DNA from: Escherichia coli
GTDB lineage: Bacteria > Pseudomonadota > Gammaproteobacteria > Enterobacterales > Enterobacteriaceae
NCBI RefSeq assembly: GCF_046105845.1
Contig: NZ_CP151004.1
Reading direction: 5' to 3' (one strand)
Length of the DNA stretch: 64,000 bases
Shown here: positions 15,069 to 32,574 of the stretch, in pieces
How the letters are laid out: every line of letters starts with the position of its first letter
Numbering within the stretch: the stretch's first letter is position 1
Translations under genes and position numbers: made by a program
The notes under the pieces: model-generated
What the model was told of the DNA's origin: nothing
What the model saw: the letters and a program-made list of their open reading frames with translations, nothing else
Database searches by the model: none

Positions 15069-17077
<2,009 letters not shown>

Positions 17078-29333: not shown

Positions 29334-31211
29334 TTACGGTTCAGGGATACAAGCCACATTGCCATATTGGGGATGACGAATAATTGCCTGCGGATCAAGC
29401 GAGCGCGTCCTGTCCAGTTGGATTAACCCGTTCTTCGCCATAACAAATATTTTTCTACCATCCGCTGAAAAACGAAGGTGATTAACGTAGCTGGCAGGAT
29501 AAACGCCAATAATCTGCCCGGCATTAATATTGAGCTGGATGACATAACCTTGCAGGCCATATGACACCAACGCTAAATATTGACCGTCCGGGCTAATACC
29601 CTCAACGGAATAAACGCTCCTGCTACACCATTGCGTCATAATACTGGCTTGTTGATCCTCAGCTCTTATACGTGAAATCCCCTGGCTATCGGCAAAAATA
29701 ATCTCTCCATTTTTTGGTCGGAATCCCATCGCAGAAACGACACCACGCGCATCACCTGCGGGAAAGTCTTCTTTCTGATGCGTGATGGTATTGATGCGTA
29801 CAATGTCACCTCTGACCATACCGGGTATCAACAATGTTTTTTCATCCGGGGAAAGTGCCATAACCCAGGCACCAGGTTTATTACTCGTCCCCGTCCCGTC
29901 GTATTTCTCCAGCGGGATATCCGCCACATGCTGATAAGTCACCAGATCAATGGCTGACACACTATTACTGGTGCGATTCATCACCCAAGCTTTTGTGCCA
30001 TCACGCGAGAGGATAAGACTGTCAGGATGTGCACCGGTGGTAATCGACTGAATAATCTCCCCCGTCGCCACGTTAATGACCGATAACGCATTCGCTTCAA
30101 ATGAAGTCGCATAAAGCAACGTTTCATCCGGGCTTAGCGCCAGCGATCTGACGCCCTGATCTTTACAGCCACCACAATGTTTGACTGACTTTTCTTTCGC
30201 TATGGGGGCTGTAAAGGTATGCAGGATTTTCTTTTGTCCGAGGTCGAAAACAACAATGCTGTTGGTGTTTTCAATTGCGGCATACAACGTATTACCATCC
30301 CGACTGATCGCCATATCATGGATATCGGAAATCTCAGCGAGCAAATCACCACTGGCCTGTTCACGACTTACCGGAGCGGATAATGTTTCCCTGAGGGCGT
30401 TGCGTTCCTCCGCTAACTGCTGCTTTTTTTGCCGTCGCTCTTGTTCAATCTCCTGTGGATAAAACTCTTCACGCAGGCTTTGCCTGACTTGTAAAACTGA
30501 CTCACCCATCTGCTGCTGCGCAAGCCAGATAGCCCCGGTCAGAAGAAGACTACCCGCAACAATAATCCCGCCTTCCGTAACAAGCCGGTTTTGCCCATAT
30601 AAACGCGCACTCAGCCCCCCCATCGCGCCACCCGCAATCAGGCCGCCAATGTGGCAAGCGTTATCTATTCCTGTTTGCCGGGCACCGTACAACAGTGTCA
30701 GCGCCACCATACCCAGCAGAGGAAATACTCGCCGCTGGTTTTTATGGTGTGTGCCCGCACCTGAAGCAAGCTGTGTTGCTATCGCAGCGCCAGCTATTCC
30801 CATAATCGCCCCGGATGCCCCAACGCTGATGACTATCTGCTCACTTTCGCGTAACGCATAACAGGCACTGATTAGCCCACCAAAGACGCCGGAGAATAAC
30901 CAGATAATCAGAAGTCGCCATTTCCCCAGTATCCGCTCCGCCACTGCCCCCACCACCAGAAGTGCAAACATATTCATCAGCAAATGGGGAAAACTACTGT
31001 GCAGAAAGACACTGCTCAATAAGCGCCAGGATTCGCCCGACAACGTGAGAGAAGTAACGTTAGCACCGAGATGGATGAGTGCGGATTGATCGACTTCTTC
31101 ATAACTCATCCATTGTGCGAGGTAACAAAATATCCCAACACAGAGCGCAAAAAGGATAAGGGTTATTGCGGGTAATTGAACATTTAACGGCTTAACCGAA
31201 GATGCAGACAT
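29334..31211 (-). CDS. Rhomboid-family intramembrane serine protease (7 TM) fused via a charged linker to a C-terminal YVTN/YncE-like beta-propeller (625 aa); not a gene I recognise from E. coli K-12
   Basis: Single 625-codon ORF. N-terminal residues 1-235: rhomboid motifs WR (62-63), HxxxN (H76, N80), GASG with catalytic Ser133, ACHIGG with His187, plus seventh hydrophobic helix 216-232. Residues 240-285 charged (EEFYPQEIEQERRQKKQQLAEERNALRE). Residues 286-625: about seven repeats of [LI]S[PR]DG..[LI]...N......[IV]D-type beta-strand blades. Confidence 0.85.
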   Translation of the reverse strand: MSASSVKPLNVQLPAITLILFALCVGIFCYLAQWMSYEEVDQSALIHLGANVTSLTLSGESWRLLSSVFLHSSFPHLLMNMFALLVVGAVAERILGKWRLLIIWLFSGVFGGLISACYALRESEQIVISVGASGAIMGIAGAAIATQLASGAGTHHKNQRRVFPLLGMVALTLLYGARQTGIDNACHIGGLIAGGAMGGLSARLYGQNRLVTEGGIIVAGSLLLTGAIWLAQQQMGESVLQVRQSLREEFYPQEIEQERRQKKQQLAEERNALRETLSAPVSREQASGDLLAEISDIHDMAISRDGNTLYAAIENTNSIVVFDLGQKKILHTFTAPIAKEKSVKHCGGCKDQGVRSLALSPDETLLYATSFEANALSVINVATGEIIQSITTGAHPDSLILSRDGTKAWVMNRTSNSVSAIDLVTYQHVADIPLEKYDGTGTSNKPGAWVMALSPDEKTLLIPGMVRGDIVRINTITHQKEDFPAGDARGVVSAMGFRPKNGEIIFADSQGISRIRAEDQQASIMTQWCSRSVYSVEGISPDGQYLALVSYGLQGYVIQLNINAGQIIGVYPASYVNHLRFSADGRKIFVMAKNGLIQLDRTRSLDPQAIIRHPQYGNVACIPEP

Positions 31212-31368
31212 AAGGTGTTTCTTCCTTGAAAAGACAGGTAAAAAGCATTTTTCCCGTGTGCAGTTATCATCCCGGCAAACGTCCCATGCCGAAAAGATAA
31301 CTCTGTCCGAAATATGACTTTTTCAGCCTAAAATTACAATCGTAATTAATTCATCCCTAAGTATTTTT

Positions 31369-31384
31369 TGGCATGTAAGTTGCT
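31369..31384 (+). promoter_or_regulatory. Candidate sigma54 (-24/-12) promoter directed toward gltI
   Basis: TGGCATgtaagTTGCT: GG and GC elements at the consensus spacing of TGGCACG-N4-TTGCA. Confidence 0.4.
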
Positions 31385-31451
31385 TTATTTACTGTGTAAG
31401 CAATGAAATCAGCCGCGACGCAACCGGGTTGCACCACCACAAATCAGCGGT

Positions 31452-31468
31452 AGCACCAAAAAGGTGCA
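31452..31468. promoter_or_regulatory. Candidate NtrC (GlnG) enhancer site in the rhomboid-gltI divergent region
   Basis: aGCACCAaaaaGGTGCA matches TGCACCA-N3-TGGTGCA at 15 of 17 positions; further GCACC/GGTGC half-sites at 31430-31436 and 31491-31496. Confidence 0.45.
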
Positions 31469-31665
31469 GTTTAAGAATTTTGCTTCGGAATGGTGCGGCG
31501 CAACTCGCAAAAACAAACAATAAAACAGCAATATCTTTACATTTAGCCAAACTAAATGTTACCTAACAGGCACAACACTGCACAATAAAGTTGCAGACGA
31601 TAACAACACAAACACTCACAACGGGTATCCATGCGTTCTTAACGCAGAAGATAAAGGAGTTGGAT

Positions 31666-32574
31666 ATGCAATTACGTAAACCTGCCACAGCAATCCTGGC
31701 CCTGGCGCTTTCCGCAGGACTGGCACAGGCAGATGACGCCGCCCCGGCAGCGGGCAGTACGCTGGACAAAATCGCCAAAAACGGTGTGATTGTCGTCGGT
31801 CACCGTGAATCTTCAGTACCTTTCTCTTATTACGACAATCAGCAAAAAGTGGTGGGTTACTCGCAGGATTACTCCAACGCCATTGTTGAAGCAGTGAAAA
31901 AGAAACTCAACAAACCAGACTTGCAGGTGAAACTGATTCCGATCACCTCACAAAACCGTATTCCACTGCTGCAAAACGGCACTTTCGATTTTGAATGTGG
32001 TTCTACCACCAACAACGTCGAACGCCAAAAACAGGCGGCTTTCTCTGACACTATTTTCGTGGTCGGTACGCGCCTGTTGACCAAAAAGGGTGGCGATATC
32101 AAAGATTTCGCCGATCTGAAAGGCAAAGCCGTAGTCGTCACTTCCGGCACTACCTCTGAAGTTTTGCTCAACAAACTGAATGAAGAGCAAAAAATGAATA
32201 TGCGAATTATCAGCGCCAAAGATCACGGTGACTCTTTCCGCACCCTGGAAAGCGGTCGTGCCGTTGCCTTTATGATGGATGATGCTCTGCTGGCTGGTGA
32301 ACGTGCGAAAGCGAAGAAACCAGACAACTGGGAAATCGTCGGCAAGCCGCAGTCTCAGGAAGCCTACGGTTGTATGTTGCGTAAAGACGATCCGCAGTTC
32401 AAAAAGCTGATGGATGACACTATCGCTCAGGTGCAGACCTCCGGTGAAGCGGAAAAATGGTTTGATAAATGGTTCAAAAATCCCATTCCGCCGAAAAACC
32501 TGAACATGAATTTCGAACTGTCGGACGAAATGAAAGCACTGTTCAAAGAACCGAATGACAAAGCACTGAACTAA
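31666..32574 (+). CDS. gltI: Glutamate/aspartate ABC transporter periplasmic binding protein GltI (302 aa)
   Basis: ORF 31591..32574; ATG 31666 preceded by AAGGAG gives MQLRKPATAILALALSAGLAQA... signal peptide. Confidence 0.95.
   Translation: MQLRKPATAILALALSAGLAQADDAAPAAGSTLDKIAKNGVIVVGHRESSVPFSYYDNQQKVVGYSQDYSNAIVEAVKKKLNKPDLQVKLIPITSQNRIPLLQNGTFDFECGSTTNNVERQKQAAFSDTIFVVGTRLLTKKGGDIKDFADLKGKAVVVTSGTTSEVLLNKLNEEQKMNMRIISAKDHGDSFRTLESGRAVAFMMDDALLAGERAKAKKPDNWEIVGKPQSQEAYGCMLRKDDPQFKKLMDDTIAQVQTSGEAEKWFDKWFKNPIPPKNLNMNFELSDEMKALFKEPNDKALN

Follow-up and report, generated by a model that had tools for sequence, protein, structure and literature searches.

Candidate downstream NtrC enhancer at the sigma-54 promoter of gltIJKL in Enterobacteriaceae and Erwiniaceae

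The window analysed here is the whole stretch of 64,000 nucleotides (64 kb) from a non-K-12 Escherichia coli, in which the gene order is corC-lnt-[rhomboid]-gltI-sroC-gltJKL-rihA. The rhomboid gene and gltI are separated by a spacer of 454 bp that contains both a sigma-54 and an NtrC motif. The features of this region are:

29334-31211, minus strand: rhomboid/beta-propeller gene, with a Rhomboid domain at residues 59-199 and beta-propeller-like repeats
31368-31384, plus strand: sigma-54 (-24/-12) promoter of gltIJKL, TTGGCATGTAAGTTGCT, supported by a position weight matrix (PWM), conservation and ChIP of orthologs
31393-31397, plus strand: predicted sigma-54 transcription start, placed 11-13 nt after the -12 GC, as is usual
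31430-31446, no strand assigned: NtrC-type site A, TGCACCACCACAAATCA, with a strong left half-site; centre at about +44
31452-31468, no strand assigned: NtrC-type site B, AGCACCAAAAAGGTGCA, the best dyad; centre at about +66
31481-31497, no strand assigned: NtrC-type site C, TGCTTCGGAATGGTGCG, with a strong right half-site and highly conserved; centre at about +95
31497-31570, plus strand: block of very high conservation (mostly 8-9/10) that separates the NtrC array from the proximal leader
31602-31622, plus strand: C/A-rich target of the sRNA GcvB in the gltI leader, the best predicted duplex with the GcvB R1 region
31666-32574, plus strand: gltI coding sequence, an open reading frame annotated as gltI by RefSeq at a locus of 99% identity
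32570-32732, plus strand: sRNA sroC, which is processed out of the 3' end of gltI (Rfam RF00369, 174.8 bits)

The proximal part of the leader holds several of these elements. A Shine-Dalgarno sequence of gltI, AAGGAG, lies at 31654-59, and a CA-rich region of the gltI 5' UTR is described in the literature as bound by GcvB. The distal C/A-rich tract at 31499-31523 was considered as a second GcvB site and dropped, since it is not among the best duplexes predicted with GcvB. The conserved block at 31497-31570 probably holds the sigma-70 promoter reported in the literature and/or sites for other factors; a scan with the sigma-70 consensus gave no strong match, and a comparison with Erwinia and Pantoea gave no single consistent -35/-10 assignment for the proximal promoter. 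At 31539-31559, within the most conserved part of the spacer, there is a perfect 8-bp inverted repeat, ACATTTAG-N5-CTAAATGT, whose TAACA...TGTTA dyad is retained in Erwinia and Pantoea. It may be a regulator site overlapping the proximal promoter.

The first-pass annotation, made from the letters of the DNA, had placed a sigma-54-like motif with exact GG-N10-GC spacing in this spacer, pointing toward gltI. On re-reading, both its coordinates and its letters are correct: in TGGCATgtaagTTGCT at 31369-31384 the GG is at 31370-71 and the GC at 31382-83, with a gap of 10 nt. The element, TGGCATGTAAGTTGCT (31369-84), thus combines the required spacing of the -24 GG and -12 GC with the TGGCAC-N5-TTGCW context. 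A PWM scan, suggested at the same time as a check, agrees with this assignment. With a matrix built from 41 ChIP-validated E. coli sites, from which the K-12 ortholog was excluded, 31368-31384 ranks first in the 64-kb window at 16.9 bits, where the median of the training sites is 15.9. The window also contains a single exact match to TGGCAY-N5-TTGCW. From a predicted start near 31395 the leader would extend about 271 nt to the gltI ATG, which is in line with the length of about 270 nt given earlier.

Two other sigma-54-like sequences were seen. The second-best PWM match in the window, CTGGCCTGCTTTATGCA at 15232-15248 on the minus strand (15.7 bits), falls within the overlapping open reading frames 15069-15869 (plus) and 15222-15764 (minus). 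Intragenic sigma-54 sites are reportedly common in E. coli, and this may be an example. In most species the 3' coding part of lnt contains TGGCGCG-N4-CTGCT (at 2373-2388 in locus L007), with equivalents at -567 to -682 from the gltI ATG in many loci; this sequence is probably kept as coding sequence.

For NtrC, site B is the strongest candidate. It had been described as a palindrome at 31452-31468 matching the consensus TGCACCA-N3-TGGTGCA at 15 of 17 positions, which holds when the N positions are counted; at the specified positions AGCACCAAAAAGGTGCA matches 12 of 14. The additional half-sites are present as well, TGCACCA at 31430-36 and TGGTGC at 31491-96. GCACC-N5-GGTGC has a single exact match in the 64-kb window. 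An NtrC enhancer is expected to have at least two dyads of the type TGCACC-N5-GGTGCA, in a fixed register on approximately the same face of the helix, and the predicted sites A, B and C show both properties (spacings of 22 and 29 bp). A fourth dyad, TGCACAATAAAGTTGCA at 31579-31595, agrees with the NtrC consensus at 11 of 14 positions; it follows the sigma-54 motif at a distance of about 210 bp, and a related TGCAC-N7-GTTGCA is retained in about 20 species. Weak NtrC binding is one possible role for this dyad; another is a small hairpin in the leader, immediately 5' of the GcvB target.

We compared the gltI loci from 80 Enterobacteriaceae species, 81 sequences altogether, and further relatives from Erwinia, Pantoea and Shimwellia. 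The sigma-54 motif is found in 81 of 81 Enterobacteriaceae sequences and in the three outgroups, invariably on the gltI strand; in the 81 sequences it scores 16.4-20.0 bits and lies 287-439 bp 5' of the gltI ATG. The alignment shows islands of conservation at the -24/-12 element, at the three NtrC-type sites and at a very conserved block of approximately 31475/31497-31570, while the DNA 5' of the sigma-54 motif is unconserved. The left half of site A reaches level 9 of 10. In site B the GCAC-N7-GTGC core is nearly invariant over the 81 sequences, with a spacer free to vary and a constant length of 17 bp. The spacing between the centres of A and B is 22 bp in 78/81 sequences, and between B and C it is 29 bp in all 81. 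Erwinia, Pantoea and Shimwellia have the same order of elements and the same 22/29-bp register.

The NtrC sites had been noted to lie downstream of the sigma-54-like motif, an odd geometry. It is real and is kept across the species compared: in the 81 Enterobacteriaceae sequences, as in Erwinia, Pantoea and Shimwellia, the three sites are invariably downstream of the sigma-54 motif. In the window they cover +35 to +102, that is, 45-115 bp downstream of the -12 element. When NtrC-like matches (at least 10 of 14 positions) are counted, 190 fall within 260 bp on the downstream side of the motif, with offsets fixed at +61/62, +83/84 and +112/113 in all 79 testable sequences. The 260 bp upstream contain 10 scattered matches, mostly within lnt, and no conserved NtrC site in these 79 sequences. 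The canonical placement, about 80-150 bp upstream of the promoter, is therefore not seen here, as every site is 3' of the sole sigma-54 motif.

From the sites to gltI no species has a further sigma-54 motif, the maximum score there being 5.7 bits. One candidate, aGGCACaacacTGCAc at 31568-83, with GGCAC-N5-TGCA at 31569-83, was considered as a second and canonically placed sigma-54 promoter. It was rejected, since its GG-N9-GC spacing is wrong, it occurs in only 4 sequences, all from Escherichia, and scores there do not exceed 5.7 bits in any species. In the absence of another sigma-54 motif downstream of it, the array can serve only the promoter that lies upstream.

The distance between promoter and array varies in steps. 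Measured between the sigma-54 motif and site B, it amounts to 82-84 bp in 67 of the 81 sequences, 95-96 bp in five, 106 bp in five, 114-115 bp in three and 118 bp in one; in Erwinia, Pantoea and Shimwellia it is 95-97 bp. The stretch between site C and the ATG varies freely in length, from 175 to 189 bp with outliers at 230 and 304. The promoter-array steps are close to whole helical turns, which is what an interaction dependent on the face of the helix, i.e. looping, predicts. Tested for zero-phase clustering with a period of 10.5 bp, the 7 lineage classes yield p of about 0.005; after collapse to 4 lengths p rises to about 0.06. The number of independent length changes is small. We regard the phasing as suggestive, not conclusive.

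The locus corresponds to regions already studied in relatives. The site called OS04 in K-12 (5' of insH3/gltI) and the site of STM0665 (gltI) in Salmonella are at the locus orthologous to that of the window, and share with it the -24/-12 element as well as its distance from the NtrC-type sites; both are bound by sigma-54 in vivo and assigned to the NtrC regulon. The K-12 sequence, TTGGCACATCTATTGCT, is a sigma-54 ChIP-seq peak with a fold-above-threshold score of 21, and the OS04 site is flagged in EcoCyc as a predicted promoter. In Salmonella TGGCACGTCTATTGCTTT is a sigma-54 ChIP-chip site, with NtrC given as the activator of gltIJKL; the rise of gltIJKL driven by DctD250 is only 1.8-fold. 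The window strain differs from K-12 and Salmonella in carrying a diverged spacer variant, TGGCATGTAAGTTGCT, which accompanies the upstream rhomboid gene.

NtrC itself has been located at this operon. In nitrogen-starved K-12 an NtrC ChIP-seq peak of 55-fold is assigned to gltIJKL, and gSELEX gives peaks for RpoN holoenzyme and for NtrC, both in the K-12 insH/lnt spacer. The gltI operon is described with both a sigma-70 and a sigma-54 promoter (Miyakoshi et al. 2022). Nitrogen limitation induces SroC in Salmonella and in the IS5-free E. coli O157 and O111, but only marginally in K-12, because of its IS5 insertion. In K-12 MG1655 IS5D (insH3) is found at CTAA, corresponding to 31563-66 of the window and 104 bp before the ATG, while the window strain is uninterrupted; the target falls at the margin of the highly conserved proximal block. 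The element puts 1.2 kb between gltI and the sigma-54 motif with its NtrC-type sites, all of which are beyond IS5, and the poor response of the K-12 gltI operon to nitrogen limitation can be attributed to IS5 lying between promoter and gene.

Taken together with the conservation, this literature on orthologs (sigma-54 ChIP, NtrC ChIP-seq, gSELEX and SroC induction) means that the placement of gltIJKL in the nitrogen-limitation (NtrC) regulon, stated in the first-pass annotation, is correct and was already known. An earlier call made from sequence only thus coincides with an experimentally documented regulon member. Control of gltIJKL by sigma-54 and NtrC is already documented, and we make no claim to its discovery. 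What remains of value is the architecture: teaching places bacterial enhancers upstream, and natural enhancers on the downstream side are rare, with rocG as the cited case. We found no explicit description of the downstream NtrC geometry in the searchable literature; older reviews may cover it. The position of the NtrC ChIP-seq peak was considered as a test of upstream against downstream binding and set aside, since its resolution is too low for individual sites: the peaks for glnK, glnH, rutA, ddpX and astC are also centred on the promoters and not on the known upstream enhancers, and the interval at gltI therefore cannot decide between the two sides.

The comparison with other systems shows how the arrangement deviates. 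Like gltI, glnAp2 and glnHp2 combine a sigma-54 -24/-12 promoter with multiple TGCACC-N5-GGTGCA dyads, spaced by whole turns and about 70-130 bp away. There, however, the enhancer is about 80-150 bp upstream, while at gltI all sites are downstream, in what would be the transcribed leader. Textbook NtrC sites are 80-150 bp upstream, and the sites at gltI are atypical in this respect. A natural downstream enhancer of the sigma-54 type is known from Bacillus subtilis rocG (RocR/SigL), which resembles the gltI array in its position relative to the promoter. The rocG element differs in being 1.5 kb downstream, past the coding region, and in using another activator; the predicted NtrC sites of gltI are less than 120 bp away, in the 5' leader.

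Based on these observations we consider it likely that gltI-sroC-gltJKL has a distal nitrogen-regulated promoter at which NtrC acts by looping from three downstream sites. RNA polymerase with sigma-54 would form a closed complex on TTGGCATGTAAGTTGCT at 31368-31384. Upon nitrogen limitation, phosphorylated NtrC would occupy the three sites, with centres at 31438, 31460 and 31489 on roughly one face of the helix, and from the transcribed leader it would loop back to the polymerase and cause open-complex formation. From a start near 31395, about 271 nt of leader would be transcribed before gltI is reached, including the region of the proximal promoter and the target of GcvB. The motifs, their conservation and their fixed register are described above, and the occupancy of orthologs by sigma-54 and NtrC and the induction under nitrogen limitation are reported in the literature; from these we infer the transcription start, the use of sites A-C as the functional enhancer and its action from the downstream side. 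The earlier suggestion was a long leader or a downstream-acting enhancer. The downstream sites and the leader length stood, and for the enhancer the compared sequences point to action from downstream as the only arrangement with which they would be compatible. An NtrC oligomer within the transcribed region could also hinder elongation.

A wider claim is held more tentatively. We regard it as possible, though below an even chance, that this is a natural and evolutionarily fixed downstream NtrC enhancer, a three-site leader array whose helical phase has been kept through insertions and deletions across Enterobacteriaceae and Erwiniaceae. The array may at the same time lie at an upstream-activator-like distance from the proximal promoter. 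If this is true, gltI would offer a convenient system in a model organism for two questions: the way in which an enhancer-bound AAA+ activator reaches sigma-54 from downstream, and the passage of the polymerase through its own activator.

Other explanations of the same array were weighed. NtrC binding is known to repress glnAp1 and glnL, and by analogy the array may mainly modulate the proximal sigma-70 promoter, or act as an obstacle that stops or slows transcripts started at the distal one, with sigma-54 activation coming from elsewhere or from NtrC in solution. Relative to the highly conserved proximal block (31497-31570) the sites lie about 75-140 bp upstream, and the operon is reported to have promoters of both types. 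However, NtrC is described as an activator of sigma-54 promoters only, and none is present downstream of the sites. Further, the invariant 22/29-bp register and the turn-wise distances argue for a stereospecific link to the distal promoter, and there is no conserved alternative enhancer upstream from which activation might come. We therefore find this explanation unlikely.

Looping from the three downstream sites also has to be compared with readings in which the dyad does not bind NtrC at all. The GCACC-N5-GGTGC dyad is inside the predicted transcribed region and has changed symmetrically in K-12, to GCACT...AGTGC, as would be expected of an RNA hairpin in a long leader. Over the 81 sequences, however, positions 5/6 and their mirrors vary independently, and one common form, GCACC...AGTGC, would be mismatched (C-A) in RNA. 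The invariant GCAC/GTGC core agrees with the NtrC consensus, the leader folds no better than shuffled sequences (z = -1.18), and sroC is the only Rfam match, the leader belonging to no Rfam family. A structured RNA leader was rejected on these grounds, and we give the hairpin an extremely small probability. Even less probable, to the point of being negligible, is a chance co-occurrence of functionless motifs. Taken singly, either motif could be attributed to chance: about 0.3 matches per 64 kb are expected for each, and 41 of 200 shuffles equalled the sigma-54 PWM score. The combination of both within 200 bp did not occur in any of 1000 shuffles; the two elements are in register in 84 sequences from two families, and the orthologous region is bound by sigma-54 and by NtrC, in vivo as well as in vitro.

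The spacer is also the upstream region of the rhomboid gene, and it had been suggested that this gene shares the control region and is nitrogen-regulated as well. The NtrC-type sites are about 220-290 bp upstream of its start codon, which speaks for the suggestion. A minus-strand sigma-54 promoter was looked for and rejected: the best score in the intergenic region is 6.9 bits, where the weakest of the 41 validated sites has 8.6. With no such motif, and with NtrC described as an activator of sigma-54 promoters only, shared control is not supported. Nor is the gene associated with the elements in general, as it is absent from 77 of the 80 species loci, in which lnt is directly upstream and the promoter and sites are nonetheless present. 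We judge nitrogen control of the rhomboid gene to be very improbable.

The gene is a lineage-specific accessory insertion between lnt and the gltI promoter, restricted to Escherichia. It was found in the lineage of the window, in another E. coli (L002) and in two other Escherichia species (L003 and L005), and the full query including it was matched by 3235 of 5426 complete E. coli genomes (about 60%). In loci without it, lnt ends 340-500 bp before gltI, with a maximum of 885 bp. The gene (29334-31211) accompanies a diverged copy of the promoter region (31212-31420), which has TGGCATGTAAGTTGCT and not TGGCACATCTATTGCT. That the two go together suggests that the whole segment was moved by recombination.
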